From: Deltaproteobacteria bacterium RIFCSPHIGHO2_02_FULL_44_16 | GTDB lineage: Bacteria > UBA10199 > 2-02-FULL-44-16 | Length of the DNA: 64,000 nucleotides | Reading direction: 5' to 3' | Assembly (NCBI GenBank): GCA_001798185.1 | Contig: MGRM01000009.1 | Coordinates: 85,745-149,744 of the forward strand | Part shown: one piece after another, positions 4,933 to 63,010 of the stretch | How positions within the stretch are numbered: the stretch's first letter is position 1 | Layout: every line of letters begins with the position of its first letter | Translations under genes and position numbers: made by a program | The notes under the pieces: generated by a model | Told to the model about the DNA's origin: nothing | The model's database searches: none | The model's input: the letters and a program-made list of their open reading frames with translations, nothing else

Positions 4933-5003
4933 GTCATTCCTGCGAAAGCAGGAATCCAGCCATTTATAAGCTTTTCTGGATCCCCGCCTACGCGAGGATG
5001 ACA
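4933..5003. repeat. Hairpin-pair palindromic repeat element (family 1), copy A
   Basis: gtcattcctgcgaaagcaggaatc…ggatccccgcctacgcgaggatgaca. The left arm forms an 8 bp stem with a GAAA loop; the right arm is degenerate. Confidence 0.6.
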
Positions 5004-7753: not shown

Positions 7754-7807
7754 CGACGACCAATAAGTGTCGGATACTTTCTGGTCAATAACCTAATTCA
7801 TGTCAGA

Positions 7808-10032: not shown

Positions 10033-10090
10033 AGCATCAATGATAAACCTCAGACCAATAAGTGTCTGACACTTATTGGTCAAAATTGGA

Positions 10091-25269: not shown

Positions 25270-25280
25270 AAATATTAACT

Positions 25281-29556: not shown

Positions 29557-29559
29557 TTC

Positions 29560-39827: not shown

Positions 39828-39974
39828 GACCAAACTGATTCACATTTTCTCTCGGGGCACGGACGCTTCGGTTGCGCTCCTCGCGTCCTCTCTTTCAGTC
39901 GGCGCGATTTATCACATCGCATCGACGCGCCTCCCTCAAAGGTCCCCTGCGAGAAAATCTTCACCAGTTTGGTC
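39828..39974 (+). mobile_element. MITE family 2 (~147 bp, terminal inverted repeats GACCAAACTG…CAGTTTGGTC), copy 1
   Basis: gaccaaactgattcacattttctctcggggcacggacgcttcgg…cccctgcgagaaaatcttcaccagtttggtc, immediately after the feoB stop. Confidence 0.7.
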
Positions 39975-39987
39975 TGTGGTTCATAAT

Positions 39988-40116
39988 ATGCAAGATATCA
40001 TCATCTACATCGTCGTCGGACTCACTACACTTTGGCTTCTGAAGCGTTTCTTTGGCAGGCGCCAGAAATCGATGTGCGGGGGAGCATGCAATTGTCCCTT
40101 CAAGTCAAAAAATTGA
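39988..40116 (+). CDS. FeoB-associated Cys-rich small membrane protein (42 aa)
   Basis: MQDIIIYIVVGLTTLWLLKRFFGRRQKSMCGGACNCPFKSKN: one TM helix, then a basic stretch and a CGGxCxC motif, downstream of feoB. The ORF track hides it inside a 146 aa ORF that translates the MITE. Confidence 0.5.
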   Translation: MQDIIIYIVVGLTTLWLLKRFFGRRQKSMCGGACNCPFKSKN

Positions 40117-40208
40117 TGTGTGTCATTTTTTTGACTTCCTCTTTCGCCAAAGAGACTGCTTCCACGCCTTTCTTCTTTATTGAACTCCATTAATCTTTAT
40201 AAAAATCA

Positions 40209-40823
40209 ATGAGTTATGTATTTGCACCGGCGCAAGCCGGCTGGCACAATCTTTGCTTTTTTAGTTCTCTAGCAAGTGGAGACAAGGAGATCTTTATGGG
40301 AAGAAACCAAGAACCGGTTCCAAATTTTGCCGAATCGCTGCGTGCTCTCGTTGCTCCTCTCTGCAAATTGCAACCGAGCAAAATCAACATGGTGCATGTG
40401 CGAGCGAGCTATGGAAATTACAAAATAACTCTCGGCCAAAACACAGAGCAAGATCCTTCCGTTGAAATTGATGGAGAGATTCATCATCTTTTTCTGACCC
40501 CTGGCCGTATTGCTCCAAATCCGACCAATCTTCAGATCGAAAAAAATATGAAAGATACCGTCATTATGCGCGATTTGAGTGTTCATCTTTTGAATCCAGA
40601 TGGACAGGCCGAGGAACAGAATGATGCAGCGGAAAAAGGGAATCACTCTGTTGAAGCACGTGAAATGATTAATCTTGCCGGAGAACGGGGAGAAGAACTC
40701 ATTCAAGAAGCCGTGGCCAGTGGAAAACTTTCAAAAGCAGCGTATGAAATCATTCGGCATGATATTTTGACAGCTCTCACCGATCATCCCGAAGACTCGC
40801 TCGGAGAAGTTTCCGAGTTTTAA
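40209..40823 (+). CDS. Hypothetical protein (possible start at 40296)
   Basis: 204 aa acidic ORF with no recognisable motif. Confidence 0.3.
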   Translation: MSYVFAPAQAGWHNLCFFSSLASGDKEIFMGRNQEPVPNFAESLRALVAPLCKLQPSKINMVHVRASYGNYKITLGQNTEQDPSVEIDGEIHHLFLTPGRIAPNPTNLQIEKNMKDTVIMRDLSVHLLNPDGQAEEQNDAAEKGNHSVEAREMINLAGERGEELIQEAVASGKLSKAAYEIIRHDILTALTDHPEDSLGEVSEF

Positions 40824-40886
40824 TTCGAGGGTTGTTTTTCTTCTCATCTCGATTAAAGAGATACACTCTAAAGGGAGTAACGTAGA

Positions 40887-42236
40887 GTGAAGAAAACCAA
40901 CTATCTCCTCACATCCTTTCTTTTTTTTTCGCTTCTTTTTTCTTCTTTTCCTGCAGCAGCAGCGAAAAACGGTGATGTCATCAACCTTTTCCCGACCAAT
41001 GATAGCGGGCTCTTTTTAAGTATCTATGACAGTCATACCTTTGGTTGGAGAAGTTTTTCCATCAGAACCGTTTGGAATTATGCACCACGTACGCTTGAAC
41101 TCAACAATACATCAGGTCGACGTGTACGAGGTGTGATCGATGATCTGCTCATCACGGATATTGGGGGGGCCATTGGGATTCTCCCCTGGTGGCATATCGG
41201 TTTTAATCAACCTGTCATCCTCTGGCAAACCTATCAAGATCCTTCTCTTCTCACGACAACTGCGCCAAAAGAGAATCGATTTGGGAAACTCGGTGATCCT
41301 CGTCTCGATATGAAATTTCGCTTGCTGGAAAATTATAGAACTCCTCTTGGAATTGCCATCATCCCCTTTGTGTATCTCCCTTATGGTGATGAAGAACATT
41401 TTTTAGGAAATGGAATGTGGTCTCCAGGCGCCACGTTAGCGCTCGACACTTCTTTGAGAAAGCGACTCTTTTTTGCTTTCAACATTACCTATCGAAATTA
41501 CGAAAAATTTCAGTATCGAACTGGCGCCAATTCTTTTATCGATGACACGCTCGGTTTCGGCCTGGGATTCCGTATTCAGATGAGCGAAAAACTCGCACTT
41601 TTAAGCGAACTTTGGGGTGAAAGCGTCATCAGTTCATTTGCAAAAAACAGTTTGCAGAACCCATCGGAATTTTTAGCAGGATTACGCTATGAACCTTCTC
41701 GCAAAAAATCACATCTGGGAATGACGCTCGCTGGCGGAAGATCCATCGTTTCAGGTCTTGGATCTCCTGAATACAGAGTCACCGCTGGCATTGATTATCT
41801 TCACTATGCCAGCGCAAAGAAAGAAAAACAAAAAGAGGCGGAGAAAGAGAAAAAGGAGAAGAGAAGAGAAGAGAAAAAAATAATAGAATTTAAGATTGAT
41901 CAGAAGATTCATTTTTCTTTCGCAAGCGCTTATATCAAAGAAGTCTGGAATCCGGTACTTGAAGAAGTGGCAACATTTCTTCTGAAACATCCTCGACTCA
42001 ATAAAATGATCGTCGAAGGATACACTGATGTACTGGGACCTCAAAAGTACAATCAGCGACTCTCTGAAGAACGAGCGAAAGCAGTGCGGGATGCTCTTAT
42101 TGCACGTGGGGTTGAACCAGATCGTCTTGAAGTTATTGGCTTTGGATCGAGCCAACCTCTCGCTGACAATGCGACCGCAGCAGGAAGAGCGCTCAATCGG
42201 CGTGTTGAATTTTCTCTTCCGGTGCAGCAACCATAG
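40887..42236 (+). CDS. OmpA-family outer membrane protein (N-terminal beta-barrel, K/E-rich linker, C-terminal OmpA domain)
   Basis: Signal peptide; C-terminal 'VEGYTDVLGPQKYNQRLSEERAKAV…NRRVEF' peptidoglycan-binding OmpA domain. GTG start. Confidence 0.7.
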   Translation: MKKTNYLLTSFLFFSLLFSSFPAAAAKNGDVINLFPTNDSGLFLSIYDSHTFGWRSFSIRTVWNYAPRTLELNNTSGRRVRGVIDDLLITDIGGAIGILPWWHIGFNQPVILWQTYQDPSLLTTTAPKENRFGKLGDPRLDMKFRLLENYRTPLGIAIIPFVYLPYGDEEHFLGNGMWSPGATLALDTSLRKRLFFAFNITYRNYEKFQYRTGANSFIDDTLGFGLGFRIQMSEKLALLSELWGESVISSFAKNSLQNPSEFLAGLRYEPSRKKSHLGMTLAGGRSIVSGLGSPEYRVTAGIDYLHYASAKKEKQKEAEKEKKEKRREEKKIIEFKIDQKIHFSFASAYIKEVWNPVLEEVATFLLKHPRLNKMIVEGYTDVLGPQKYNQRLSEERAKAVRDALIARGVEPDRLEVIGFGSSQPLADNATAAGRALNRRVEFSLPVQQP

Positions 42237-42299
42237 TCATCCCCGCGAAAGCAGGGATCTCATGTTTTGACTCGAGATTTCCGCTTTCGCGGGAATGAC
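42236..42299. repeat. Hairpin-pair palindromic repeat element (family 1), copy D, between the convergent OmpA and giant-protein genes
   Basis: gtcatccccgcgaaagcagggatctcatgttttgactcgagatttccgctttcgcgggaatgac followed by TTTTT. Probably acts as a bidirectional terminator. Confidence 0.6.
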
Positions 42300-45200
42300 T
42301 TTTTGATACCCACAAGCAGTATGAGGAAGAAAAGAAGCATCTGCTTCGAAGAAGCTTTAGTTGAAAGCGAACATCCTCCGCCACCATCAAAGGAGAACTC
42401 ATCTCCTGGGTTGGTGTTAATAGAACCATAAAGGTCCACTTTATAAACACTACTCGTCGATTTCGTCGTAAAGATTTCATCAATTCCATCTGAATTTGTA
42501 TCTCTGAGGAAGATACCTGCAAAACATCGATCGCCACTCGACTCACACGGAACTTGGATAATTCCCTTTTCATCATTGACATTCATCGTACTGCTCCACG
42601 TCGTTCCTCCCGGGATGACATAGAGAATTCCAGTATCATTATTATGTGTTGGAGCGCCGATCAGCAGATCAATATAGCCGTCACCTGTCACATCTTTAAA
42701 TGCCAGACTTTGACCAAATCCGTCACTGGCGCTTCCATTACTGATCACCACAGCAGCATCGTCTTCAGAATAGACCGTGCCATCAACGAGAGGACCATTG
42801 ATAATGTAAACAGCTCCGTTCGTTGTTGCCAAAGCAACGTCTTGATTGCCGTCAGCGTTATAATCTCCAACTGCTGTCGTTTGAATATTTGCATCGGGAC
42901 TGAGCGATGCATCGACACCAGTGCTTGAAAGCTGGACTTCTCCGGTTAAACTCGACGCTTCATTCAACGCAAAACTCTTGGAGACGGCTACTTTCACCGT
43001 AAGCGTGCTTCCCACTTGAAGATTTTTCTTAATGCCTGGATTATCCGGACCAACGAGAAAAGCATTGTTGGTCTTGGTAAAAAGATTTTGGACGACGAGA
43101 GAATAAATAGGATTATTGCTGCTTCCAAAAATGAGGCCCGTAAGCACATAGTTCTGGTTGTAGAGATAGATACAACCATTAAATCCGCAACCGGGCGCCG
43201 CAATCGCAATATCAATTTCTCCATCACCGTTGATATCGCCTGTCCCGAGATAGGAAGCAAAACCATCACTTTCATTGCGTTCAAGAATCAAGAAGGGGTC
43301 AGAGCTTGACGCTGAGAGCACTGCTGGCAGCAAATCACTCTCAAATTTGGAAGATGCTTTTGAAACAGACTTTGAAACTGCAAGATCAGCAAGCTCGCTC
43401 AAATCAATCGTCCTTGGAAGATTAGCTAACGTTCCTGTGCTCTCTGTTGCGAGGAAAACCTGCGATCTTCCACTCGGGAATTGAATACCGACCATCATTC
43501 TTCCGGTACTGGTTTCATCAATTGTATAACTTGAATATCCTGAGGGAAGTGTCAGCGTCAGGAATCCGATTTCAAGAAAATGAGCTTCACTTCCTCTTAT
43601 TTGCGTGCGGCGTTCATAGACCGTATATCCTCCAACAGATCCAACCACCATGAGGTTACTCTGGGTCTCTGTTTGAATGCTGACCGCTTCGAGATAACGA
43701 TTCACTGTCACAACCGCATCGTCAGTTGCTGAGGTACTGCCATCAGTCACCGTGAGGCGTAAGGTAAGTGATCGACTGCGAGCGCTTTGTGAAACCGAAA
43801 GCGTTGATGAAGCGGAAGTCGCGCTTCCAAGCGATGCAACTCCGTCAGTATTTCCGCTGATGATCGTCCATGAATAACTGATACTTGAACCTGTTCCACT
43901 TCCACTTAACGTAATCGATTCGCCTGCATTCATGCGTCGATCACTTCCGGCACTCGCTGAAACAAGTGTTGATTCTGTATCGTTATCGGTGATCGTTCCG
44001 GTTCCCTGACTGTCGTTGATCGTGGCATTGGCATTCACGTTGCTCAAGTTGATGACAAAGGTCTCATCGCTTTCGGTCGTGCTATCGTCAGTTGTCGAAA
44101 CGGAAACCGTCTTGCTCGTTTCCAGTGCAGCGAATGTCAGCGTTCCACTATTTGCAGTGTAATCAGAACTTGTTGTGGCAGTTCCATTGGCAGTGGCATA
44201 GTCAACCGTAATTGTTTGCGTGCTGGCACGATTCAACAACACCGTAAATTGAAGAGTGTTGCCCTCTGTTGCAGAGACATCATCGATGGTGATTCTCGGC
44301 TTAGGTCCAGATGTATCATTATTCGTTAATGTGCCAGTCCCCTGGCTATCGCTGATCGTGGCATTGGCATTCACGTTGCTCAAGTTGACGACAAAGGTCT
44401 CATCAATTTCATTGAGACTATCATCAGCTGTCGTTACAGAGATCGTCTTACTGGTTTCCAACGCTGCAAACGTCACTGTTCCACTGGTCGCAGTGTAATC
44501 GGAACTGGAGGAGGCTGTCTCGTTCGCGGTGGCATAGTCAACCGTAATCGTTTGAATGCTGGCATGATTCAATGACACAGTAAATTGAAAGGTATTCCCC
44601 TCTGTTGCAGAAACATTGTCGATGCTGATCGTCGGAATTGAACCACTATCCGTGATCGTACCAGTTCCCTGACTGTCGCTGATCGTGGCATTGGCATTCA
44701 CGTTGCTCAAGTTGATGACAAAGGTCTCATCGCCTTCGGTCGTGCTGTCGCTGGCGGTGGAAACATCGACCGTCTTCGTGGTCTGCCCTGCTGTGAATGT
44801 CAATGTCCCGCTTGTCGCAGTGTAATCAGAATCTGCAGTCGTCGCTGTCCCATTGGCGGTGGCATAGTCGACGGTGATCGTCTGAGAACTTGCGTTGCTC
44901 AACGAGACCGTAAATTGAATACTACTCCCCTCCACCGCAGAAACATCGTTGACGCTGATGCCTGGAGTACTATCGTCATCGGTAATCGTCACCGTATGTA
45001 GGGTCGGACTAATCGCAACAGCATTGGTGGGAGTTCCCATTGTCAGAATGACGGTTTCATCACTCTCATCGATCGTATCTGCTGTTACGGTAAAAGTTGT
45101 AGTCCCGGTAGAAACATTATCCGCACTCAAAATTGTAATATTGCCATCGGCGAGATTATGGTCTGTTCCGCTCGCCGTTGCACTTCCACTGACCGTGAAC

Positions 45201-46690
45201 GGGATCGTGACATCTGAAGAGGGAACTTCAGGAAGGGTAGCAGTCACCGTCACCGTCCCTACTGCTTCAGCTACACTCTGCGATGATGCAGAGAAAGAGA
45301 CACCGGGATCTACGGTAATATCGGTTACATTTCCGGAATGATAACTATTGGTCGTCGTAATCGTTCCACCAACACCATCAGCATCCTTTAAATCGCAATA
45401 GTCCATGGTGTTATTACTTCCTTGATCGATCCCAAATTGGGTTCCTGCAACACTGGAACGAAGTGCCAGATAGGCGCCAGAGGCACCTTGAAAGGTCATG
45501 TTGTTTGTAATCGTCACTGTTTTGCTTGCTTCTATGGTAAGGGTATCAGCCGTATTCACACTTTTTGAAAAATTATAAAATGTGGGAGAGCCATTAATGG
45601 CTTGATTTGTTCCATCCAGGGTAACCGTACATGTGCGTCTATTGAACACCCCTCCGGAAGTAAACGTAAAATCTCCACCAACCGTAATATCGTAACAAGT
45701 TGGAGTTCCTGCCTCCAAAGTTCCGTCAGCACTGATGGAAAGATCGTCGTTAATATCAATGGCAGCTGCTAAGGTGGCTGACGCATCTTCAATATCCACG
45801 TCATTGAACGACATACTACTGGCAGGAGCATTCACGATCATATTACGGAAGACGATTTTCGCATTGGCAGTATGAGCAACAGTTCCGGCGGTATGTGTAA
45901 AATTCTTGGTCACGCGCAATGTGCCGTCAAACGTAAGTGTTCCGCCAGTTTTGTTGATCACGATCTCCGTCGTGGTTCCACTCGACGTGCTGTGATTTCC
46001 CGTACAGGTTTGATTGTTATCGCCAGTAAAAGTAATTTTACCGTTCGGAAAATCTGTAAACCCACTTTCAAAAGAAACATCTCCCTGTGCTTCAACCCCT
46101 GAGCCTGAGTTTCCACTCTGGAGTTTTCCAGAAGTCAACGTTGTGGTTGCTGTCACAATAAGCGTATCGTCATTTGCCACCGTAAGGTTTGCGAAAGCAT
46201 TTTTTGCGACCGTAAAATTTTTCATCGTAAATGACGTGCTCACATCGATCGTTGACGAGCTTCCCGTGAACTTCAGCGTCGCCGCATCAGCATCCAATGT
46301 ATTTGCGCCAAGGGTAAAATTCCCTGAAGTCGTGAACGTCGTTGTTCCGATATCAAGAACGCCGGTGTAGTTTGTCGTCGTTAATGAACTCACAGTGGTA
46401 TTGGACGAAAGCGTACAATTTCCCGTTCCACTTGCATCAAACGTGACCGCATCAGAACTTCCTGGAACGGAACCTGTTGTCAGTTTTGATCCACCGCTCG
46501 TACCGGACCAACAGGCCAGCTCACTCCACAGACCAGTACATGCAGAATCACCATCAGCAGTATCGTAAATCCAAAAACGAGACGCAGCATGCGCTTCGGA
46601 GATAAGAGCCCAGGAAAAAATCAGAACGGGGATGAAGTATTTGAGTGCGTATTTCTTCACGACTTTTCCTCCACCAACATTGTACCGCAA
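42260..46690 (-). CDS. Giant repetitive cell-surface protein (1476 aa): signal peptide, FG-GAP/VCBS-like and Calx-beta repeats, C-terminal hydrophobic anchor with a basic tail
   Basis: Calx-beta signatures ('DETFVINLSNVNANATISDSQGTGTITD' x3-4), FG-GAP-like 'DINGDGEIDIAIAAPG'. C-terminus 'GGGGCSLS…LLFFLILLVGIKKSFPRKRKSR'. Confidence 0.75.
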   Translation of the reverse strand: MRYNVGGGKVVKKYALKYFIPVLIFSWALISEAHAASRFWIYDTADGDSACTGLWSELACWSGTSGGSKLTTGSVPGSSDAVTFDASGTGNCTLSSNTTVSSLTTTNYTGVLDIGTTTFTTSGNFTLGANTLDADAATLKFTGSSSTIDVSTSFTMKNFTVAKNAFANLTVANDDTLIVTATTTLTSGKLQSGNSGSGVEAQGDVSFESGFTDFPNGKITFTGDNNQTCTGNHSTSSGTTTEIVINKTGGTLTFDGTLRVTKNFTHTAGTVAHTANAKIVFRNMIVNAPASSMSFNDVDIEDASATLAAAIDINDDLSISADGTLEAGTPTCYDITVGGDFTFTSGGVFNRRTCTVTLDGTNQAINGSPTFYNFSKSVNTADTLTIEASKTVTITNNMTFQGASGAYLALRSSVAGTQFGIDQGSNNTMDYCDLKDADGVGGTITTTNSYHSGNVTDITVDPGVSFSASSQSVAEAVGTVTVTATLPEVPSSDVTIPFTVSGSATASGTDHNLADGNITILSADNVSTGTTTFTVTADTIDESDETVILTMGTPTNAVAISPTLHTVTITDDDSTPGISVNDVSAVEGSSIQFTVSLSNASSQTITVDYATANGTATTADSDYTATSGTLTFTAGQTTKTVDVSTASDSTTEGDETFVINLSNVNANATISDSQGTGTITDSGSIPTISIDNVSATEGNTFQFTVSLNHASIQTITVDYATANETASSSSDYTATSGTVTFAALETSKTISVTTADDSLNEIDETFVVNLSNVNANATISDSQGTGTLTNNDTSGPKPRITIDDVSATEGNTLQFTVLLNRASTQTITVDYATANGTATTSSDYTANSGTLTFAALETSKTVSVSTTDDSTTESDETFVINLSNVNANATINDSQGTGTITDNDTESTLVSASAGSDRRMNAGESITLSGSGTGSSISYSWTIISGNTDGVASLGSATSASSTLSVSQSARSRSLTLRLTVTDGSTSATDDAVVTVNRYLEAVSIQTETQSNLMVVGSVGGYTVYERRTQIRGSEAHFLEIGFLTLTLPSGYSSYTIDETSTGRMMVGIQFPSGRSQVFLATESTGTLANLPRTIDLSELADLAVSKSVSKASSKFESDLLPAVLSASSSDPFLILERNESDGFASYLGTGDINGDGEIDIAIAAPGCGFNGCIYLYNQNYVLTGLIFGSSNNPIYSLVVQNLFTKTNNAFLVGPDNPGIKKNLQVGSTLTVKVAVSKSFALNEASSLTGEVQLSSTGVDASLSPDANIQTTAVGDYNADGNQDVALATTNGAVYIINGPLVDGTVYSEDDAAVVISNGSASDGFGQSLAFKDVTGDGYIDLLIGAPTHNNDTGILYVIPGGTTWSSTMNVNDEKGIIQVPCESSGDRCFAGIFLRDTNSDGIDEIFTTKSTSSVYKVDLYGSINTNPGDEFSFDGGGGCSLSTKASSKQMLLFFLILLVGIKKSFPRKRKSRVKT
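44003..45000. repeat. Three near-identical ~333 bp tandem repeats inside the giant surface-protein gene, each encoding a Calx-beta unit
   Basis: The block …ctgtcgctgatcgtggcattggcattcacgttgctcaagttgatgacaaaggtctcatc… recurs at ~44003, ~44341 and ~44669. Confidence 0.65.
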
Positions 46691-46854
46691 CTTATGTGCC
46701 AGCTTAGAGGGAAATTTTTTACTATAACTACATGATATTATTTATATTTTTAAATTCCCCTCTTTCTCAAAATGGGAGAAAAAAGGGGCAAAAAGTCAAA
46801 AAAATGACGCTTTTCAGGAGTATAACAAAAAACTTTCGACATGCATGTAAAAAC

Positions 46855-48600
46855 TTATGCTATTCCAAGCTCTTTGAGCTGTTTCGCGGAGACCTGCGAT
46901 GGAGCATCGCACATGAGATCAGAAGCGCTTGTGGTTTTGGGAAAGGCGATCACATCGCGAATATTTTCCGTTCCCGTGAGAAGCATGATCAGACGATCAA
47001 ACCCCAAAGCAATGCCACCATGTGGAGGGGCTCCCATTTGTAAGGCTTCGAGCAAAAAACCAAATTTTTGCTGCGCCTCTTCTTTACCAATACCGAGCAA
47101 GCGAAAGACTTGATCTTGAATCTGCTGGTGATGAATTCGAATCGAACCCCCACCGATTTCAGAACCGTTGAGCACAATATCATACGCGAGCGCGCGAACT
47201 CGCCCAGGATCGTTTTCCAAAAATGGAAAATCTTCTATATGCGGCGAAGTAAAGGGATGATGCACTGCCACAAACCTTTTTTCCTCTTCGCTCCAATCAA
47301 AAAGAGGAAAATCATAGACCCACAAAAAATCAGGCTGCACCTTTTCTAGGAAACCTTGTCTCTTTCCAAGGTGCAAGCGAACTGCTCCAAGCGCTGCATT
47401 CGCAACAGATGCTTTATCAGCGACAAACAAGAGAAGATCTCCTTCTTTGATTGAACAGATTTTTGTCAGCGGCGCTTTTTCTTGCTCCAAAAATTTTGCA
47501 ATCGCTCCCTTCCATTCTTTCTCTGCTTTAATCCACGCAAGTCCTTTTGCTCCATGTGTTTTTGCAACTGCTTCGAGATCATCAATCTCTTTTCGAGAAA
47601 GGTCCTGCGCACCGCAGTTAAGAACTTTTACAATCCCTTGGTTTTCAACCACAGAGGCAAATGTTTTGAACGAGGCATTCCGAAAAATCTCTGTCACATT
47701 CTGCAACTCCCACGGAATGCGACGATCAGGACGATCATTGCCGTAACGTTCCATAGCGTCAGCATAACGAAGTCGATCAAATTGTTTCGGAATTTCAACA
47801 GCGCAAATTTCTTGAAAAAGGGTACGCAATACCTTCTCAATCAATGCAAAAACAGTTTCCTGTGTTGGGAATGAAATCTCAATATCGACTTGCGTAAATT
47901 CCGGTTGGCGATCCGCACGAAGATCCTCATCGCGAAAACATTTGACGATTTGAAAATAGCGATCAAATCCCGCAACCATCAAAAGCTGTTTGAACAATTG
48001 CGGTGACTGTGGAAGCGCATAAAATTTTCCCTTCGCAATGCGCGAGGGGACAAGATAGTCGCGCGCTCCTTCAGGTGTCGATTTCGTGAGAACCGGTGTT
48101 TCGATTTCCAGAAAATTTTCTTCCGAAAGAACACGACGGACAATTTGTGCTGCTCGGTGTCGAGTGATCAATTGCCGTTGAAGAACCGGACGACGAAGAT
48201 CGAGATAACGATATTTGAGTCGCAACTCTTCTGAAGCTGTCGTGTCGTTTTCAATCAGAAAAGGGAGCGGCTTCGCGGTGTTCAATATTTCAATCGATGA
48301 GACTTCGACTTCAATCTCACCGGTCGCAAATGCTTTATTGACTTGATCGTCAGGACGCTTCTGAACCACCCCTTCGACTTCGATCACATATTCATAACGA
48401 AGGTCATGCGCACGCTTCATCGTTTCTTTCTCAACGGTATCAGGGTTCAGCACTACTTGCGTAATCCCATAACGATCGCGAAGCTGCAGAAAAATAAGCC
48501 CTCCAAGATCGCGACGTGCATGGATCCAACCTTGAAGAATCACTTTTTTCTTTGTCTCATTTTTGGTCAACTCACCACATGTGTGTGTACGCTGTTTCAT
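46855..48600 (-). CDS. aspS: Aspartyl-tRNA synthetase (start corrected to [11 protein letters not shown]; the ORF track N-terminus is translated MITE)
   Basis: Class II aaRS motifs ('…FLQLRDRYG…', '…GGGSIRIHH…'); ~580 aa after start correction. Confidence 0.9.
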
Positions 48601-48622
48601 GAAAGCTCCGCTAAAAACTATG

Positions 48623-48769
48623 GACCAAAGTGGTGAAGATTTTCTCGCAGGGGGCCTTTGACTGAGGCGCGTCGATGCAGTTTGATAAATCGCGCCGATG
48701 GAAACAGAAGACGCGAGGAGCGTAATCGAAGCGTCTGTACCCCGAGAGAAAATGTGAACCAGTTTGGTC
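48623..48769 (-). mobile_element. MITE family 2, copy 2 (reverse orientation), in the hisS-aspS spacer
   Basis: gaccaaagtggtgaagattttctcgcagggggc…ccccgagagaaaatgtgaaccagtttggtc is the reverse complement of the other copies. Confidence 0.7.
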
Positions 48770-48771
48770 AA

Positions 48772-50034
48772 TTAATTCCATAGATTTTCTAAATCAGAAA
48801 GTTTGACTTCCTTCTGCTCTTTGGTCACCAGATTTCGAACGATCACACTCTGTTTTGCAATTTCATCATCACCCACAATGATCACCATTTCAGCTCCTGA
48901 TTTATCAGCACGTTTCATGAGACTCTTCAGCGATTTCGGTTCATAATCCCATTCAACGTGAATTCCCTTTTGGCGCAGTGACTGAATTTTTGGGGACATC
49001 ACTTCAATGGCCTTCTCACTCATCGCCGCCACATAGGCCTTGCAGCCTTTCTGGGTAAAGTTTGATTGTAGTGACTGCAGAAGCAAGATGAGTCTTTCAA
49101 TTCCAATCGCAAATCCGACTGCTGGAATATCAGGCCCACCAAGATCACGCACAAGACCGTCATAGCGACCGCCGGCAGCTACTGCATTTTGCGCACCGAG
49201 TTGATCGGTCGTAAACTCAAAGGCAGTCCGTGTATAGTAATCGAGTCCTCTCACGATTCGTTCATTCACCACATATTTCACATTGAGCAATGTCAGATAT
49301 TTTTGAACGGCCTCAAAATGCTCACGATCTTCGACAGAAAGAAATTCAGCAAAACGGGGAGCATTTTTTAAAATGTGTTGGGTCGACTCCACTTTACTAT
49401 CGAAAATACGAAGTGGATTTCGATGCAAACGTTTTTGAGAATCTTCGTCAAGTTTCCGTCGATAGGGTTCAAGATAGGATAAAAGCTTCTCGATATATTT
49501 CTTCCGCGATGATTCTGATCCGATCGAATTGATCTCAAGCGTTATATGTTCCAATTTCATGCGATCAAAAAAATGCGAAAGCATGGCCATCACTTCAGCA
49601 TCGGAAGAAGGATGCGAAGGGCCGAGCAACTCAGCACCAAGTTGATAAAACTGTCGTTGTCTCCCTTTTTGCGGACGTTCGTAACGAAACATCGGACCAA
49701 AATACCAGTACCGTGAAATCGGCTCGAGTCCATGGACGTTTGCGTTGATATAAGCGCGCACCACAGAAGCCGTCCCTTCGGGACGAAGCGTCACTTCATG
49801 TCCACCTTTATCGACAAAATCATACATCTCTTTGGACACAATATCGGTCGACTCTCCAACGCTTCGTTTGAAGAGAGCCAGAGGCTCGAGAATGGGAGTG
49901 ACAATCTCGTCATATCCATACGACGAAAAAACAGCTTGCGCCGTTTCAATGACTTTTCTCCAAAGATGACTCTCAGGAGGAAGAATGTCTTCCATCCCGC
50001 GGAGGATTTCGACTTTGTTTCCGTGGTTCTTCAT
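48772..50034 (-). CDS. hisS: Histidyl-tRNA synthetase
   Basis: Class II motifs, 'RPEGTASVVRAY', HisRS anticodon-binding domain; 420 aa. Confidence 0.9.
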   Translation of the reverse strand: MKNHGNKVEILRGMEDILPPESHLWRKVIETAQAVFSSYGYDEIVTPILEPLALFKRSVGESTDIVSKEMYDFVDKGGHEVTLRPEGTASVVRAYINANVHGLEPISRYWYFGPMFRYERPQKGRQRQFYQLGAELLGPSHPSSDAEVMAMLSHFFDRMKLEHITLEINSIGSESSRKKYIEKLLSYLEPYRRKLDEDSQKRLHRNPLRIFDSKVESTQHILKNAPRFAEFLSVEDREHFEAVQKYLTLLNVKYVVNERIVRGLDYYTRTAFEFTTDQLGAQNAVAAGGRYDGLVRDLGGPDIPAVGFAIGIERLILLLQSLQSNFTQKGCKAYVAAMSEKAIEVMSPKIQSLRQKGIHVEWDYEPKSLKSLMKRADKSGAEMVIIVGDDEIAKQSVIVRNLVTKEQKEVKLSDLENLWN

Positions 50035-50070
50035 AAGAACGAGGAGATGTAACAGAGCGGAAAAGGAGCG

Positions 50071-50901
50071 TCAATTGTTGGCTGCGACAAGACGAAGGTC
50101 TTCAGCCACACTCATAATGATGTCAGGAGTCAGAGGAAAAGAGGCTTTTCGGATATATCCTTCGAAGAGGGCATTATCACAGATGACATTCACGAGACGC
50201 GGAATCCCTTTCGAAAAAGAAAAGATAGCAGCAAGAGCCGCTCCAGAAAATATTTCTCGACTCGCACCCGCATGCTGCAAACGAAAACGAATATAGTCGA
50301 CCATGACATTTTGAGGAAATGGTTTGAGTTCACATCGAACGGCTGTTCGTTGTGCGAGCGCTGGCTCCAAAGCAATCACTTGATCGAGCTCCGGCATTCC
50401 AAAAAAAACAAAGGAGATTAATTTTTGTTCTGGAAGTTCAAGATTGAGTAAGCCTCGAATTTCTTCAAGCAAATCTTGCGTGCGAAGCATATGCGCTTCA
50501 TCAATCAGAACTGCAGCGCGCTTTCCGGTCTCGGCAATTTCTTCTAAACGACGATACAAGCGCGTCATGATATCGACCTTTTTTTCATCTTCTTTAACTT
50601 CAATTCCAAATTGCGCTGCGATTCTTCGCACAAGCCAATTGCTATCGACATCGCTATGGAGCACCACAAGCAGAGAGACTTCATATTCTTCTTCCGGAAG
50701 ACTTTCAAAAAGACGACGCGCCAAGAGCGATTTTCCCGTCCCAACAGGACCGGTCAGAAGCGCTAAGCCCTTCATCGCTTGAATCGCTCGATGAAGATGA
50801 AGATAGGCGCGATCATGCTGCTCATTGTTATAATAAAAATCGGTCAACGGCATGATGGAGAAAGGTTCTTTTTTCAATCCATAATATTCAAGATGACTCA
50901 T
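50071..50901 (-). CDS. ExeA/GspA-like AAA ATPase (type II secretion / T4P-associated)
   Basis: 'GLALLTGPVGTGKSLLARRL' Walker A and an ExeA-like N-terminal region. Confidence 0.55.
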   Translation of the reverse strand: MSHLEYYGLKKEPFSIMPLTDFYYNNEQHDRAYLHLHRAIQAMKGLALLTGPVGTGKSLLARRLFESLPEEEYEVSLLVVLHSDVDSNWLVRRIAAQFGIEVKEDEKKVDIMTRLYRRLEEIAETGKRAAVLIDEAHMLRTQDLLEEIRGLLNLELPEQKLISFVFFGMPELDQVIALEPALAQRTAVRCELKPFPQNVMVDYIRFRLQHAGASREIFSGAALAAIFSFSKGIPRLVNVICDNALFEGYIRKASFPLTPDIIMSVAEDLRLVAANN

Positions 50902-50913
50902 GGGATCCTCTCG

Positions 50914-52335
50914 TTAAACAAAGGAAGCTTTCTTTTTGGATTTTGGAAACGGTGGCGTATCTTGCTTCGGTTTTTCTTCTTTTTTTTGAACTTTTTTTTC
51001 GCCGCGCAAATCTTCAATGCGCTGCACAAGAAAAGGATCGGGTTTCCCTTGCGTTTGAAGCGCTTCGTACAACTCCAGCGCTCTGCGGCGCTCTTCGTCA
51101 GCTTCTTTTTCCAACCCCATCTGTTCATACATGTTCATCAGTCGAAAAGCTGCATCAGCTTCGTGTGTCTCATTTTTTGGAGCTGCAACGGACGGAGGTG
51201 GCGGAGGAAGCGATGAAGGGACAACGCCCTTTTCCGCTAATCGTTTTTGGATTTTTTCACGACGGATTTTTTGCGCCTCTTCTTCTTGAACACGACGCGT
51301 TTCATCTTCTCGTCGGCGAAGTGAGACTTCACGTTTTCGTTCTTCTTCTTCTCTCTCTTTTAATTCTTCATCAAGTTCTTTCCGTCGCTTCAGCGCCCAC
51401 GCTTCGGCGCGAGCAAAAGCATCAGGACCCAAGAGACTTATCTTTGTTCGCACTTCTTCTTTTTCTCCTGGAATATATACCAAAATTTCAGCATACGCTC
51501 TCAGCGCTCCTTCAACATCTCCATTTTCCTGATAGAGTTCTGCCAGAGAAAAATATTTGCTCTTTGCGGTATCAAATTGATTGAGAGAGGCATAGATTTC
51601 AGCCTGCATTCCTAAAAGTTCGGGGTCATACGGAGTCAGATCTTCGGCAGCATCCAGCCACTTGAGCGCTCTCTTTTTATCCCCCTCAACATACGCATAT
51701 CGAATAAGTCTCTCGATCAGAAACGTTCGATCGGGACGATGTGAAAGAATCTTTTCGTAAAGTTCGATCAGTTTCTTTTCTCGTCCCCCTCTTTTTTCCA
51801 GAGCTTTTGCAAGCTCTTCAAATTGATCAAGGGCTTGTTCTGTTTTCCCCACACTTTGATAAAATTCTGCAAGTCGAGTCCGCGATGCAATGTCATCAGG
51901 ATGCAACTGAACAATTTTTTCTCGAATTTCGAGTGAACGTTCTCGATCGCCACGACGATCTAAAGCATTTGCCACAATGTCATATTGCCGAACAGCGTCT
52001 CCAAGAATCCCCATACGCTCATACAGTTTCGCAAGTTCTTCGTTGATCTCAATCAATGACGGATTTAAACGCAAAATTTGTTTATAGACCGTGACGGCTT
52101 TGAGATAAAAACCTTCATCAGTATATTGCAATGCTACTTCTCGATAAAGTTTGATCGCTTGTTCACTCTGTTTTTGTTTTGTGTAGAGTTCTGCAATCCG
52201 AATTTTGACGCGCAAATCTTTCACATCTGAGAAAAGAATTTTCTCATATTCACGAATAGCCTTATCAATCTTTCCCTCATCGACAAAAGCTTGAGCCTGT
52301 TCAAGCAATTTTTCTTTATTGAGAATGGTCGTCAC
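50914..52335 (-). CDS. TPR-repeat protein with a charged coiled-coil region and a Pro-rich C-terminus
   Basis: Multiple TPR-like helical repeats; 'EEEERKREVSLRRREDETRRVQEEEAQK' and 'SSLPPPPPSVAAP'. Confidence 0.5.
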   Translation of the reverse strand: MTTILNKEKLLEQAQAFVDEGKIDKAIREYEKILFSDVKDLRVKIRIAELYTKQKQSEQAIKLYREVALQYTDEGFYLKAVTVYKQILRLNPSLIEINEELAKLYERMGILGDAVRQYDIVANALDRRGDRERSLEIREKIVQLHPDDIASRTRLAEFYQSVGKTEQALDQFEELAKALEKRGGREKKLIELYEKILSHRPDRTFLIERLIRYAYVEGDKKRALKWLDAAEDLTPYDPELLGMQAEIYASLNQFDTAKSKYFSLAELYQENGDVEGALRAYAEILVYIPGEKEEVRTKISLLGPDAFARAEAWALKRRKELDEELKEREEEERKREVSLRRREDETRRVQEEEAQKIRREKIQKRLAEKGVVPSSLPPPPPSVAAPKNETHEADAAFRLMNMYEQMGLEKEADEERRRALELYEALQTQGKPDPFLVQRIEDLRGEKKVQKKEEKPKQDTPPFPKSKKKASFV

Positions 52336-52345
52336 GTCTCTCGCC

Positions 52346-52837
52346 TCATTTCGATAGCTCGATTAATCTCTTTTCTGCTTCATGATTATGAGGGTCGCGG
52401 CGAAGAATGGATTCAAAAATTTTCCGCGCTTTGTCAGCATGTCCTTGAGCTTGGAAAATTTCTGCCATCGTAATGGTCTCCCAATTTTCCGGAAGTTTCT
52501 CTTCATGTTTTTCTTCTTGGATTTTGGACTCTTTGATTTTCTGATGAAGAATCAAAGCTTGCTGATGGCCTGGATGATTTGCGAGAATGGTCTGAACTTC
52601 TTCTTCTGCCTCTTCCCAATTTCCGCGCGCAATATGGACCCTTGCCAGAAGCAACTTCGCGCTGAGACACTGAGGATGATGACGCAACCCTTCCCGACAT
52701 ACCTTTAAGGCATCGTCCAAAAGATGATAGCGGAGAAAAAAATCAGCAATGGCGACAAAAACAATGGATTGAGGATCGCGTTGCCATTGATGGTAATAGC
52801 GCAAAAAGAGAGGATTGTTCAAAAGATCTGGATGCAT
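52346..52837 (-). CDS. TPR-repeat protein
   Basis: 163 aa with TPR-like repeats ('…LLLARVHIARGNWEEAEEEVQTIL…'). Confidence 0.45.
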   Translation of the reverse strand: MHPDLLNNPLFLRYYHQWQRDPQSIVFVAIADFFLRYHLLDDALKVCREGLRHHPQCLSAKLLLARVHIARGNWEEAEEEVQTILANHPGHQQALILHQKIKESKIQEEKHEEKLPENWETITMAEIFQAQGHADKARKIFESILRRDPHNHEAEKRLIELSK

Positions 52838-52875
52838 TGATCTGATATCAAAGATTTTTCTTCAAGGATCAAGAT

Positions 52876-53130
52876 TTAAATGACTGGCTTTGGAAAAACC
52901 TTTTCTTTGTCCGTGAGTTTGAGACCAAGCGCGAGCAAAATTTTACGCATCGTATCCATGCGACACGACATCCCATGTTCAATGCGATCAATCGTGAGAG
53001 AAGAGATGCCGGCTTTACGAGCAAGCTCCGCTTTACTCATTAAGAGTTCTTCACGAAACTGACGAACATTATTTCCTATCGACTCTTTGCTTTTCACATT
53101 CTTCTCCTGAATCTGTATGACGGCTTTCAT
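52876..53130 (-). CDS. XRE-family helix-turn-helix transcriptional regulator
   Basis: 'LMSKAELARKAGISSLTIDRIEHG' HTH_3-like. Confidence 0.55.
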   Translation of the reverse strand: MKAVIQIQEKNVKSKESIGNNVRQFREELLMSKAELARKAGISSLTIDRIEHGMSCRMDTMRKILLALGLKLTDKEKVFPKPVI

Positions 53131-53232
53131 GAAGCGGGATATAGACTCAGAAATGCAAAGAGCGTCAAGGCTTTTCTTAAATTATATTAAAATATATATA
53201 ATTTTTAATCTTTTATATATAAAAGATCAGCT

Positions 53233-54030
53233 TTAAAAAAGGCTGAGGTACCAGGAAACCATTTGAGGACCAATGAAGAGATAGATGATACCGGCAAAAG
53301 CAATAAAAGGACCAAAAGGGAGTTGATATTGAAATCCTTTGCGAAAGAAAATCATCAACACGATACCAATCAAAAGTCCTAAGACAGAACTGAGAAGCAT
53401 GATGAAAAGAGTTGCTTGCCATCCAAAAAAAGCGCCGAGCATGGCCATTAACTTTACATCCCCTCCTCCAAGGCCCTCCCGCTTTTTTATTTTTTCATAG
53501 GCAAACGCGATGAGGAAAAGAGTTCCTCCTCCTACAAGAATACCAATGACACCATCCATCAATGCAGAAAGATGAGTACCTTCAGGTGCAAGAAGAAGAC
53601 GCACGATCAAACCGACCACAATTCCCGGCAAGGAAATGGAGTCAGGAATGATAAGATGTTTCAGATCAATAAAAGAGATGACCATAAGAGGAGCGATGAA
53701 AAAAAGAAAATAGAGGAGATAGGAGAGAATATCGCGAAACCACCACCAGGTCAGAAGAGAAAAAAAGATCGTGAACAGTTCAACCAAAGGATATTGCCAT
53801 GAAATGGCTGCGTGACAATGACGACATTTGGCTCGGAGAAAGAAAAAGCTGAAAAGAGGAATATTTTCGTACCACGAGAGGGAGTGGCGACAGTTGGCAC
53901 AGTGCGAACCGGGGAAAATAATCGATTCACCTTGAGGTAAACGCGAAATACAGACATTCAAAAAACTTCCGACAATAGCGCCGAGCACGCCGACAACAAT
54001 CCAAAGGTAAATTTCTGGGAGAAAATGCAT
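53233..54030 (-). CDS. pilD: Prepilin peptidase (A24 family, PilD-like)
   Basis: N-terminal tetra-Cys 'CANCRHSL…CRHCHAAIS', 'GGGDVKLMAMLGAFFGW', polytopic membrane protein. Confidence 0.75.
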   Translation of the reverse strand: MHFLPEIYLWIVVGVLGAIVGSFLNVCISRLPQGESIIFPGSHCANCRHSLSWYENIPLFSFFFLRAKCRHCHAAISWQYPLVELFTIFFSLLTWWWFRDILSYLLYFLFFIAPLMVISFIDLKHLIIPDSISLPGIVVGLIVRLLLAPEGTHLSALMDGVIGILVGGGTLFLIAFAYEKIKKREGLGGGDVKLMAMLGAFFGWQATLFIMLLSSVLGLLIGIVLMIFFRKGFQYQLPFGPFIAFAGIIYLFIGPQMVSWYLSLF

Positions 54031-54071
54031 TGAACATCTTTAACATAGAAAACAGTTGATGACTATAGATT

Positions 54072-54219
54072 AGCCAAACTGATTTCGCATTTTTTCTCGG
54101 GGTACAGCGGCTTCGGTTACGCTCCTCGCCGCTTCTGTTTCCGTCGGCGCGATTTATTATATTGCATCGACGCGCCTCCCTCAAATGCCCCCTGCGAAAA
54201 AATCCTTATCAGTCTGGCT
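54072..54219 (+). mobile_element. MITE family 2, copy 3 (degenerate termini), between the divergent prepilin peptidase and gatC genes
   Basis: agccaaactgatttcgcattttttctcggggtacagcggcttcggttacgctcctcgcc…ccccctgcgaaaaaatccttatcagtctggct. Confidence 0.6.
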
Positions 54220-54265
54220 TTATCATTGTCAGTTCTTTTCCCCTATGTTAGCCCCGCATGCATCT

Positions 54266-54562
54266 ATGAAAAAAGAGCTTATCGAACATGTGCGCCAACT
54301 TTCTCGCCTTCGTTTTTCCAAAGAAGTCGAAGAACGCCTCGTGAAAAAAGTAACAGCAATCATGGGCTATGTCGAACGCCTCAATGAATTAAATACCGAA
54401 CATATTGAACCAACCTCACATGCGATGATCTCCTCTGGCCCCTCTTCGGGAAATCTTCGTGAGGATCGCGTGATTCTCTCCACACTTGCATCAGACATTT
54501 TATCTGTCGCCCCAGAGCGGGACGGCGCTTCTATTCAAGTTCCCAAGGTAATCGATTCATGA
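54266..54562 (+). CDS. gatC: Glu-tRNA(Gln)/Asp-tRNA(Asn) amidotransferase subunit C (start corrected; the ORF track N-terminus is MITE-derived)
   Basis: ~98 aa; '[25 protein letters not shown]…' is typical of GatC. Overlaps the gatA start. Confidence 0.8.
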
Positions 54563-56022
54563 ATGAACTCACTTCTCTGACACTTCATGAAACGCATGAC
54601 CTTCTCACCAAAGGTGAAATCTCTTCCGTTGAATTGACGAAGCAATATTTTTCGAGAATCGAAAAATATGACACCACACTCCACTGCTATCTTACATTAT
54701 CTGCGGAAGCAGCACTCCAGCAAGCAGAAGCATCTGATCAACGTCTCAAAAGGAAAAGAGAGCTGACCCCCTTCACCGGAATCCCCCTCGGTCTCAAAGA
54801 TATTTTCGTCACCAAAGGGATTCGCACCACTTGTGCTTCAAAAATTTTAGAGAACTATGTTCCCCCCTATTCTGGAACGATTGTTGAAAAACTCGATCAG
54901 GCAGGAGCTATCCTCCTGGGAAAATTGAATATGGACGAGTTTGCCATGGGATCATCAAATGAACACTCGGCCTTTGGAACTACGTTGAATCCATGGAACC
55001 CCTTCGTTATTCCAGGAGGATCCAGTGGCGGCAGCGCTGCTGCGGTCGCTGCAGATCTCTGCACGGCTTCTCTCGGTACTGACACTGGTGGTTCCATTCG
55101 TCAGCCCGCGGCAATGTGCGGTATTGTGGGACTGAAACCGACCTATGGTCGCGTCTCGCGTTACGGCATTATCGCGTTTGCGTCATCTCTTGATCAACTT
55201 GGTCCTATGACTAAAGATGTCACGGATGCAGCACTCATGATGAATCTGATTGCAGGGAGAGATGAACGCGATGCGACATCTCTTGATGCTCCGGTTCCAG
55301 ATTATACGAAAAATCTTTCCCAAGGGATCAAAGGAATGCGCCTTGGCATTCCGAAAGAATATTTTGTGAAAGGAATTGATCCTGAAGTCGAAGCAGCTGT
55401 AAAAGCAGCCATTCAACAACTTTCTGAACTCGGTGCAAGCATTGAAGAGGTGACACTTCCGCATACCGAGTACGCAATTCCTGCCTACTATATTATTGCT
55501 CCTGCTGAAGCCTCTTCGAATCTCGCGCGCTACGATGGCGTTCGATATGGAGTGCGGAGCAACGAAGCACACGACCTTCTCGAACTTTACGAAAAAACGC
55601 GCTCTGAAGCTTTTGGTCCAGAAGTCACGCTTCGCATTATGATCGGGACGTACGTCCTTTCATCCGGTTATTATGATGCCTATTATCGTAAGGCGCAGAA
55701 AGTTCGGACTCTTATTGCGCAGGATTTTACAAACGTCTTTCAACAGGTCGATGCGCTGGTGACGCCAACAGCACCGACGGCTGCATTTAAAATTGGAGAA
55801 AAAACAGAAGATCCACTAAAAATGTATCTCAATGATATCTTTACCTGTCCGGTGAATCTTGCGGGACTTCCGGCAATATCGGTACCATGTGGTTTTACCA
55901 ACGCGAAGCTCCCGATCGGACTTCAATTGATTGGAAAACCTCTTGATGAAGCAACCCTGCTCCGCGTTGCATATACGTATGAACAATCAACGCCGTGGCA
56001 TAAACAAAAACCGACGCTATGA
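54559..56022 (+). CDS. gatA: Glu-tRNA(Gln) amidotransferase subunit A (amidase)
   Basis: Amidase signature '[13 protein letters not shown]…[13 protein letters not shown]'; 487 aa. Confidence 0.9.
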
Positions 56023-56032
56023 CCAATGACTC

Positions 56033-56179
56033 TTCCAAACTGGTTCACATTTTCTCTCGGGGTACAGACGCTTCGGTTACGCTCCTCGCGTCTTCTGTTT
56101 CCATCGGCGCGATTGATCGAATTGCATTGACGCGCCTCAGTCAAATGCCCCCTGCGAGAAAATCTTCACCAGTTTGGTC
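56033..56179 (+). mobile_element. MITE family 2, copy 4, in the gatA-gatB spacer
   Basis: ccaaactggttcacattttctctcggggtacagacgcttcggttacgctcctcgcgtcttc…ccccctgcgagaaaatcttcaccagtttggtc. Confidence 0.7.
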
Positions 56180-56215
56180 CATCGTCAATAGTCCATGGTC
56201 AATGGTCGATTGTTT

Positions 56216-62940: not shown

Positions 62941-63010
62941 GTCATCCCTGCGAAGGCAGGGATCCAGTGTTTTTGATGCTTTCTGGATTCCCGCCTCCGC
63001 GGGAATGACA
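62941..63010. repeat. Hairpin-pair palindromic repeat element (family 1), copy E
   Basis: gtcatccctgcgaaggcagggatccagtgtttttgatgctttctggattcccgcctccgcgggaatgaca; the right arm is a perfect 8 bp hairpin. Confidence 0.6.

Follow-up and report, generated by a model that had tools for sequence, protein, structure and literature searches.

The DNA analysed here, called the window, is a 64,000-nucleotide stretch (64 kb) of contig MGRM01000009.1 of Deltaproteobacteria bacterium RIFCSPHIGHO2_02_FULL_44_16, positions 85,745 to 149,744 of the forward strand. It carries four copies of a ~147 bp element with inverted ends, all within 16.4 kb, in the spacers after feoB, between hisS and aspS, between the divergent pilD and gatC, and between gatA and gatB. 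The original prediction had placed four copies at the coordinates listed below and in these gene contexts; both hold, the contexts by gene calls combined with Pfam, by which all flanking genes were assigned. The copies align with one another over their full length, with pairwise identities of 82-94% and a mean column identity of 88%. The third copy had been described as degenerate; it is full length (148 nt) and differs only in being the most diverged. These four copies, with their scores against a covariance model built from the copies, and three more from other contigs of the same metagenome-assembled genome (MAG) are as follows.

c1, 39828..39974, + strand, 173.7 bits: feoB stop at 39821-39823, 4 nt upstream; ATG at 39988, 13 nt downstream; sense to both genes
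c2, 48623..48769, - strand, 180.3 bits: hisS stop at 48772-48774, 2 nt away; aspS ATG at 48600, 22 nt away; sense to both genes
c3, 54072..54219, + strand, 172.8 bits: in the 214-nt divergent pilD/gatC spacer; pilD ATG at 54030, 41 nt away; gatC start at 54245 or 54266, 25-46 nt away
c4, 56033..56179, + strand, 181.8 bits: gatA stop at 56020-56022, gatB ATG at 56216; sense to both genes
c5, second contig: between lysS and a lolC-like gene, antisense
c6, second contig: between nadE and a TP_methylase (RsmI-like) gene, antisense
c7, third contig: between a DUF366 gene and a radical-SAM gene of a queuosine-type cluster

The gene upstream of c1 carries FeoB_N and FeoB_C, and the one downstream is a 42-aa, Cys-rich open reading frame (ORF) matching Pfam FeoB_associated (E=3.9e-5). 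The calls that flank c2 give a HisS of 420 aa and an AspS of 581 aa.

A 22-nt core of the element has four matches in the window and none in 100 shuffles, and a search of the 64 kb with nhmmer and the covariance model returned no fifth copy or fragment. All copies are single units, and TRF detected no tandem array where they lie. Rfam gave no match at gathering score across the window, and around c3 and c4 only chance-level hits, at E=3.7 or more; no tRNA gene was found in the window, and phage, plasmid and IMG/VR collections held no similar sequence. The pattern CGCTCCTCGC-N{10,18}-TCGGCGCGAT, run over genome contigs, gave at least 120 matches; those listed are chance matches in GC-rich genomes, and none of them is the element.

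The proteins of the window are identical in two MAGs from the Rifle aquifer, RIFCSPLOWO2_02_FULL_44_10 and RIFCSPHIGHO2_02_FULL_44_16, and the three further copies lie on two other contigs of the MAG named "Deltaproteobacteria bacterium RIFCSPLOWO2_02_FULL_44_10". Contigs were assigned to the same genome by neighbouring NCBI protein accessions (OGQ226xx/OGQ228xx and OGQ46xxx/OGQ45xxx), all of which belong to the two Rifle MAGs. Copy c5 was the one true match (L130) in JGI metagenomes to a pattern with 22 specified bases; that pattern undercounts, because c6 and c7 carry TGCG instead of TTCG and escape it. Walking from protein to protein by exact matches revealed c6 in 25 kb of the second contig, which also holds c5, and no copy in the ~18 kb on either side of the window. 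Copy c7, on a third contig, was reached through its own ORF, P0152. All seven copies measure 147-149 nt and are 79-94% identical. The window's contig thus contributes four copies in ~100 kb and the second contig two in 25 kb, figures that do not establish the high genome-wide copy number which had been proposed. With c7 left out because it was found through its own ORF, six copies remain in ~125 kb whose choice did not depend on the element, a density of ~1 per 21 kb.

The placement of the copies is regular. Six of the seven lie between co-directional genes, where the core begins 0-12 nt past the upstream stop and the native start codon of the downstream gene is intact. Removal of the element leaves a residual spacer of ~2-47 nt, or 66 nt at c3. 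Five copies are sense to transcription and two (c5 and c6) antisense, which rules out a strict sense orientation. Terminator prediction found none at any copy, which disposes of a terminator reading; with spacing this short and no terminators predicted, the element is reasonably taken to be co-transcribed with its neighbours.

The ends of the element read GACCAAACTGGT...ACCAGTTTGGTC (5'/3'), and its GC content of 52-56% exceeds that of the genome (44%) and of the window (41-48%). Inverted termini are present, as had been claimed, but the perfect terminal inverted repeat (TIR), GACCAAACTG/CAGTTTGGTC, occurs in c1 only: c2 has one mismatch, c4 begins TTCC, and c3 has AGCC...GGCT, a compensated change. 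The long internal hairpin that had also been predicted was borne out by folding, in which every copy folds far better than its shuffles on both strands (z-scores of -4.8 to -6.9), and the pairing proposed for it corresponds to a real helix, P2, formed by TTTTCTCTC.GGGG with CCCC.TGCGAGAAAA. RNAalifold and explicit pair counting back four helices in all.

P1: the terminal inverted repeat, 10-12 bp, with 90.5% of cells paired
P2: 8+5 bp (ttttctctcgggg/cccctgcgagaaaa), a second inverted repeat of 13 bp, with 98.9% paired
P3: an internal hairpin of 6 bp whose loop measures 16 nt, with 100% of cells paired; three pair types occur across three of its six pairs
P4: GGCGCG/CGCGCC

Across the seven copies, standard pairs fill 96.5% of pair cells, a share that falls to 43-51% once the 3' partners are shifted by 1-3 columns. 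Both sides have changed in a compensatory way in 8 of the 37 pairs (0-1 in the shifted controls), and no more than 2 of 500 shuffles attain such pairing values. P3 occurs as AGACGC/GCGTCT, GGACGC/GCGTCC and AGCGGC/GCCGCT, and P1 covaries at both ends (GACC..GGTC, AGCC..GGCT and AACC..GGTT; CTGGT/ACCAG, CTGAT/ATCAG and CTGTC/GACAG). Three stretches are near-invariant, CGCUCCUC in the P3 loop, UUCUGUUUCC at the junction and GGCGCG/CGCGCC in P4. Wobble and mismatch positions are mixed, one favouring the + strand and three the - strand, so that pairing at the RNA level and at the DNA level look alike.

Inside c3, a sigma-70-like match (54156..54184, - strand; TTGAGG-17-TATAAT, 10 of 12 positions, a match to consensus only) is aimed at pilD. 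Its −10 box, which no other copy has, sits in the variable loop of P4, and on the strength of this match c3 may provide a pilD promoter.

The boundaries of the unit may lie beyond the core. An outward motif resembling AAGAGTC(C)ATTG is found in the 5' flank of c4 (56024-56032) and at the 3' ends of c6 and c7, and the tail of c4 (56180..56214, + strand) is a run of about five degenerate GTCNATN heptamers (GTCAATA GTCCATG GTCAATG GTCGATT GTTTATG). The shared motif and the heptamer run suggest that the true unit is possibly longer than 147 nt and has subterminal repeats, tails that may stretch the ~147-nt core to ~190 nt.

Comparison with relatives indicates that the element was inserted. The closest GatA homologues are 66-70% identical, and three relatives keep the gene order aspS-hisS-AAA-TPR-TPR-HTH-pilD and, divergently, Zn_ribbon-gatC-gatA-gatB-IF2B. 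In these three distant syntenic relatives the element is absent from the same junctions, and the gatA-gatB spacer measures -4 (an ATGA overlap, in L137), 42 and 94 nt, compared with 193 nt here. The segment was therefore inserted rather than inherited as conserved coding or leader sequence; in particular, it is not conserved 5' coding sequence, a possibility that the original prediction had itself named as fatal to its reading.

The relatives differ from the window in other ways at these junctions. All three have a Zn_ribbon_TFIIB gene of ~100 aa between pilD and gatC, overlapping or abutting gatC; window positions 54031-54265 lack this gene, and c3 occupies the gap. The TGATGA to the left of c3 could be the leftover end of a Zn_ribbon_TFIIB gene. 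The relatives also fill the same hisS-aspS, gatA-gatB and pilD-proximal spacers with unrelated palindromes of their own (L134:2376-2470, 11460-11510, 9145-9240 and 14143-14238; L137:3819-3912; L136:3060-3125), and in L134 one palindrome with an 8-nt period of GTGAGAT/GCGAGAT occurs in both the hisS-aspS and the gatA-gatB spacer. The presence of unrelated palindromes in the same spacers suggests that these operon junctions are recurrent, general landing or retention sites.

The junctions themselves carry a short duplication. The pentamer ATGAY stands on both sides of three copies, the left one carrying the upstream stop and the right one the downstream start.

c4: TATGAC at 56018..56023 (+ strand, carrying the gatA stop) and at 56215..56220 (+ strand, carrying the gatB start)
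c5: ATGAT/ATGAT, at 3954-3958 and 4112-4116 of locus L138
c6: ATGAC/ATGAC

TATGAC is the longest direct word common to the two flanks of c4, and the shorter ATGA is duplicated at c3 and c7. Deletion of 56024-56220 rebuilds an ATGA start/stop overlap of the kind found in the relative L137. The ATGAY repeats are possibly a target duplication of a start/stop overlap. A target duplication abutting the element (TA, TTAA or YTAR) was considered as well and rejected, for only c7 has TTAA/TTAA, itself palindromic.

Four of the six operon copies are crossed by an ORF that opens at or near the upstream stop and closes at or near the downstream start. These relay ORFs are:

c4: 56019..56219, + strand, 66 codons, with ATGA overlaps with both the gatA stop and the gatB start (-4/-4)
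c5: 50 codons, read from the element's antisense strand, with ATGA and TAATG overlaps (-4/-1)
c7: 71 codons, with an ATGA (-4) overlap and a 26-nt overlap
c2: 48611..48781, - strand, 56 codons, with its ATG 7 nt upstream of the hisS stop

The TAG of the c2 relay ends 10 nt ahead of the aspS ATG, directly before a GGAG ribosome-binding site. Calculated from per-copy shuffle rates, at least four relay ORFs in six copies are expected in ~0.5% of composition-preserving shuffles, and at a rate of ~1e-5 with spacers of genome-like composition. Within the element, the + strand has no ATG or GTG start, and its only ORFs are read-through artefacts. Selection for a stop-free + strand, as in Rickettsia palindromic elements (RPEs), was considered and set aside, since the 0-2 stops observed, against 1.3-3.6 in dinucleotide shuffles, are mostly a matter of composition. 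Reinitiation is reported to drop sharply once the spacer exceeds ~20-40 nt (PMC10666635), and this makes the relay ORF a plausible reason why an insertion of 150-190 nt between gatA and gatB, whose products are subunits of the same enzyme, would be harmless.

Taken together, the copies are probably lineage-specific, non-coding, palindromic dispersed repeats, similar to transposable elements of the miniature inverted-repeat type (MITEs) and to enterobacterial repetitive intergenic consensus (ERIC) elements, that were inserted at co-transcribed gene junctions and persist because they do little harm; this explanation is favoured but falls well short of certainty. Spread of the element would have been driven in trans, by a DDE transposase that uses the TIRs or by an enzyme that recognises hairpin DNA. 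The element would prefer, or survive only at, stop/start junctions, and insertion would duplicate the ATGA overlap, so that the left copy retains the upstream stop and the right copy the downstream start. RNA polymerase would then read through, and the element would fold in the mRNA. A relay ORF could pass ribosomes on and so preserve translational coupling, for example from gatA to gatB, and at the divergent site c3 may supply a promoter for pilD. By analogy, RNA-level effects like those of ERIC and Correia elements are possible. A more specific version, in which a mobile palindrome is specialised for the ATGA overlaps of translationally coupled genes, duplicates the overlap and gives a stop-free relay ORF in either orientation, is tentative and considerably less probable. 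If true, it would describe a transposon adapted to live unseen in essential operons, its four-helix fold serving either transposition or RNA-level neutrality.

Several results weigh against a mobile repeat of this kind. No direct repeat abuts the core ends, and the window and ~80 kb of added DNA from this genome (~144 kb together) yielded no transposase, no integrase and no lone TIR, nor any insertion sequence with matching ends when Pfam and gene tables were searched over the same ~144 kb. The ATGAY repeats, a pattern recognised only after the fact, sit 0-35 nt beyond the core; c1 and c2, whose upstream genes end in TAA, show no duplication, and the ATGA/TCAT signal may in part stem from an extended inverted repeat (AAGAGTCATTG) rather than from the target. 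A relay ORF is missing from c1 and c6, and relay ORFs are largely a by-product of a stop-poor, pyrimidine-rich + strand. The element is GC-richer than its host, lacking the AT-richness that is typical of MITEs, although not defining (PMC10969869). Presence/absence polymorphism between related strains, which had been put forward as a check, was not seen among the assemblies and strains read, across which the copies are identical: the gatA-gatB spacer is identical in independent ENA and Logan assemblies, with one variant carrying two single-nucleotide polymorphisms. Finally, all family-wide patterns are drawn from seven copies. Of the original MITE assignment, then, a short, non-coding, dispersed and inserted TIR repeat holds; the abutting duplication, the parent transposase, the polymorphism and the AT-rich composition typical of such an element were not found in the DNA and assemblies read.

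A functional structured cis-acting RNA module, whether for mRNA processing or stability or as a protein or RNA binding site, with any mobility incidental or long past, is the rival that survives best, but it is rather unlikely. The compensatory changes in P3 are its main attraction: this helix lies outside the TIR, and a simple model of insertion-sequence ends without a transposase does not predict them. Nearly invariant loops, GC-rich stems in an AT-richer genome, the sense orientation of five of the seven copies and the aminoacylation genes that flank several of them (hisS, aspS, gatCAB, lysS) would also fit, and an influence on mRNA decay via RNase E or RNase III is known from ERIC and Correia elements (PMC10969869). 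In the two antisense copies, however, the loops read as their complements, the wobble and mismatch positions favour neither strand, and Rfam gives no match above chance level even at E<=10. Because relatives do without it where the junctions are the same, the element is no conserved regulator of these genes, and its other neighbours (feoB, nadE, the queuosine operon, lolC) are functionally unrelated. Two narrower RNA or retroelement readings were rejected: a T-box or riboswitch leader of aminoacylation genes, on the lack of an Rfam match, the relatives without the element and the unrelated genes that are flanked too; and a retron, on context.

Less probable again, and doubtful, is a palindromic element of the repetitive extragenic palindrome (REP) and bacterial interspersed mosaic element (BIME) type or of the IS200/IS605 type (palindrome-associated transposable element, PATE), moved as single-stranded DNA by a hairpin-recognising Y1 enzyme (RAYT, the REP-associated tyrosine transposase, or TnpA). 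Recognition of a hairpin would account both for the structural covariation and for the missing target duplication at the core ends. Stems conserved by covariation rather than by sequence, good folding of both strands and a position directly after stop codons in operons, where REPs also sit, agree with it. Yet the ~144 kb sampled contains no RAYT, TnpA or Y1 gene or domain, the element is 4-5 times the length of a REP, its long TIRs span the whole unit unlike subterminal hairpins, and no conserved 4-5 nt target stands 5' of one end.

Integron attC-like recombination sites are effectively refuted by gene context. The resemblance is one of form, in that the copies are imperfect palindromes of ~150 nt right after stops, conserved in structure above sequence, and their ends (...ACCAAAC and GTTTGGT...) are each one mismatch from the attC core-site consensus RYYYAAC / GTTRRRY; what flanks them, though, is syntenic housekeeping genes instead of cassettes, they point both ways (5:2), neither the window nor the added loci show an integrase, and the copies are scattered over three contigs with no array. 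Chance similarity, an assembly artefact or real 5' coding sequence of the downstream genes, to which the open + strand (0-2 stops) and a chimeric contig joined inside the element (L004) might point, is already refuted by the same junctions in independent ENA, Logan and NCBI MAG assemblies, the absence of matches in shuffles, the native N-termini of the downstream proteins, homologues that lack the segment, and a stop count near the dinucleotide expectation.

The inserted, dispersed repeat that remains favoured has consequences for annotation. The claim that it artificially lengthens its neighbours is right for aspS (TTG 48771) and gatC (ATG 54185), whose longest frames run into the element, and wrong for gatB, whose longest ORF starts at 56195, downstream of it; gatC is called as 125 aa in two public assemblies. 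The spurious ORF predicted at 56019-56219 (66 aa) is indeed present in the protein database, as P0001. When three sense-frame peptides of the element were compared with 5.8 billion proteins, only P0001 (66 aa, from c4) and P0152 (71 aa, from c7) were found, both stand-alone ORFs. Assemblies are affected too: the Logan contig L003 (SRR3989338_530447) starts and ends inside c2 and c4, and L004 (ENA ERZ27254836 k141_1650175) is a chimera in which a lolC-like locus is joined to gatC inside the element, which is the behaviour expected of an assembler at a dispersed repeat. The element thus corrupts public gene calls, in the form of spurious 66- and 71-aa proteins and an over-long GatC, and breaks or chimerises metagenome assemblies, and masking it would improve annotation in this lineage. 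It is also a clean example of a repeat that fills the stop-to-start spacers of essential operons (hisS-aspS, gatA-gatB, lysS-lolC) without harm.

The window holds other repeats and loci. A second repeat family of ~70 nt has copies at 5053-5121, 7020-7086 and 42236-42302 and half copies at 4938-4953 and 62989-63004. Its unit, GTCAT-[TCCCGC GAAA GCGGGA]-ATCTC...GAGAT-[CCCCGC...GCGGGG]-ATGAC, sets two GC hairpins inside a GTCAT/ATGAC inverted repeat, and its 16-nt hairpin pattern has 6 matches where 0.6 are expected. The copies sit between convergent genes in one case, at the called start of the ORF 5052-6434 in another, and apparently inside a hemN-like ORF (6431-7717, minus strand) in the third. 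Twice, at 21713-21760 and 21845-21892, the flexible linker of an E2 (sucB-like) protein (21463-22647) contains in frame a GC-rich palindrome of 48 nt (..GAGGGCGAACGCCGTTCGCCCCTAC); it is translated ..APEGERRSPL.. in both copies and looks like an RPE-like intragenic insertion. A near-perfect palindrome of 31 nt, GACCAATAAGTGTC.GACACTTATTGGTC, also occurs twice (7758-7788 and 10053-10083), bracketing a locus with an AbiEii-domain gene (8543-9424), and may serve as an operator or a recombination site; GACCAA is all that it has in common with the end of the 147-nt element. At 43976-44938, three tandem repeats of ~330 nt (62-79% identical) are probably repeated protein domains of a 1476-aa Calx-beta/FG-GAP ORF (42260-46690, minus strand). 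A defence-type cluster (26480-32138; 25242-26318; 17538-18444) encodes an N6_N4 DNA methylase, a nuclease of the YhcG/DUF1016 type, a ResIII helicase and a protein whose N-terminal domain is that of a TnsA-like endonuclease, with a Fic protein and a HEPN/nucleotidyltransferase pair in addition. Another such pair, with the same Pfam domains, adjoins lysS on another contig (L138:1550-2411).

Known small repeats offer a comparison. Features listed for prokaryotic MITEs include direct repeats on the flanks, at least of young copies, an autonomous insertion sequence that shares their ends or other proof of mobility such as presence/absence between strains, and, typically, AT-richness in AT-rich intergenic DNA (PMC10969869). 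From the list of MITE features in the same source, the element shows a length below 500 bp, no transposase gene, TIRs within ~4-30 bp and multiple dispersed copies. In placement and behaviour it is closest to ERIC elements, also called intergenic repeat units (IRUs), of Enterobacteriaceae and Vibrionaceae. These too are imperfect palindromes of ~127-150 bp in transcribed intergenic DNA, often just 3' of genes, found in either orientation, folding in mRNA and having no known transposase; effects on mRNA decay have been reported for them (PMC10969869). There is no sequence relationship, and the host phylum differs. The present element, in contrast to ERIC, has a covarying multi-helix internal core and makes up nearly the entire stop-to-start spacer.

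Correia elements of Neisseria (CREE/NEMIS) are likewise ~100-155 bp long, carry TIRs, are co-transcribed with their neighbours and can carry promoter-like boxes, and the hairpin formed by their TIRs is an RNase III substrate (PMC10969869). They differ in duplicating a TA target that abuts their ends and in having an integration host factor site, whereas the candidate duplication here is ATGAY at a distance. Rickettsia RPEs and Coxiella QMITEs share with the element a palindromic unit of ~100-150 bp that reads as an open frame, and QMITE2 is found mainly in the 3' untranslated regions of ORFs (PMC10969869, PMC5896051). RPEs are typically inserted in frame within genes, unlike the present copies, none of which (0 of 7) is intragenic. 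In structural covariation the element resembles hairpin elements of the REP type; REP/BIME with RAYT have in common with it palindromes after stops in operons, structure above sequence and no target duplication, but REPs are 20-40 nt and clustered, and no RAYT gene occurs in the sampled DNA.

Mycobacterial interspersed repetitive units (MIRUs) are 46-101 bp long, often stand in tandem arrays, and lack long TIRs and a conserved multi-helix fold. Here, by contrast, the units are single, palindromic and 147-149 nt long, and a relay ORF is present in only four of six. What the two share is a position inside operons at start codons and, on the account in the passage of PMC12548453 that cites Supply et al. 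1997, an internal ORF joined to the flanking gene by a -4 overlap, through which MIRUs are thought to be tolerated; in c4 and c5 such coupling exists on both sides. The overlap is exact in c4 (ATGA/ATGA) and c5 (ATGA/TAATG), approximate in c2 and c7, and absent in c1 and c6. If the duplicated ATGA junctions and the relay ORFs hold genome-wide, the coupling idea developed for MIRUs would extend to an unrelated phylum and to a palindromic element with TIRs, and the reach of relayed termination-reinitiation would gain a natural test case. The element is neither an attC site nor an RPE, and neither a riboswitch nor a terminator; we classify it as a previously undescribed member of the small palindromic intergenic repeats, or MITE-like elements.

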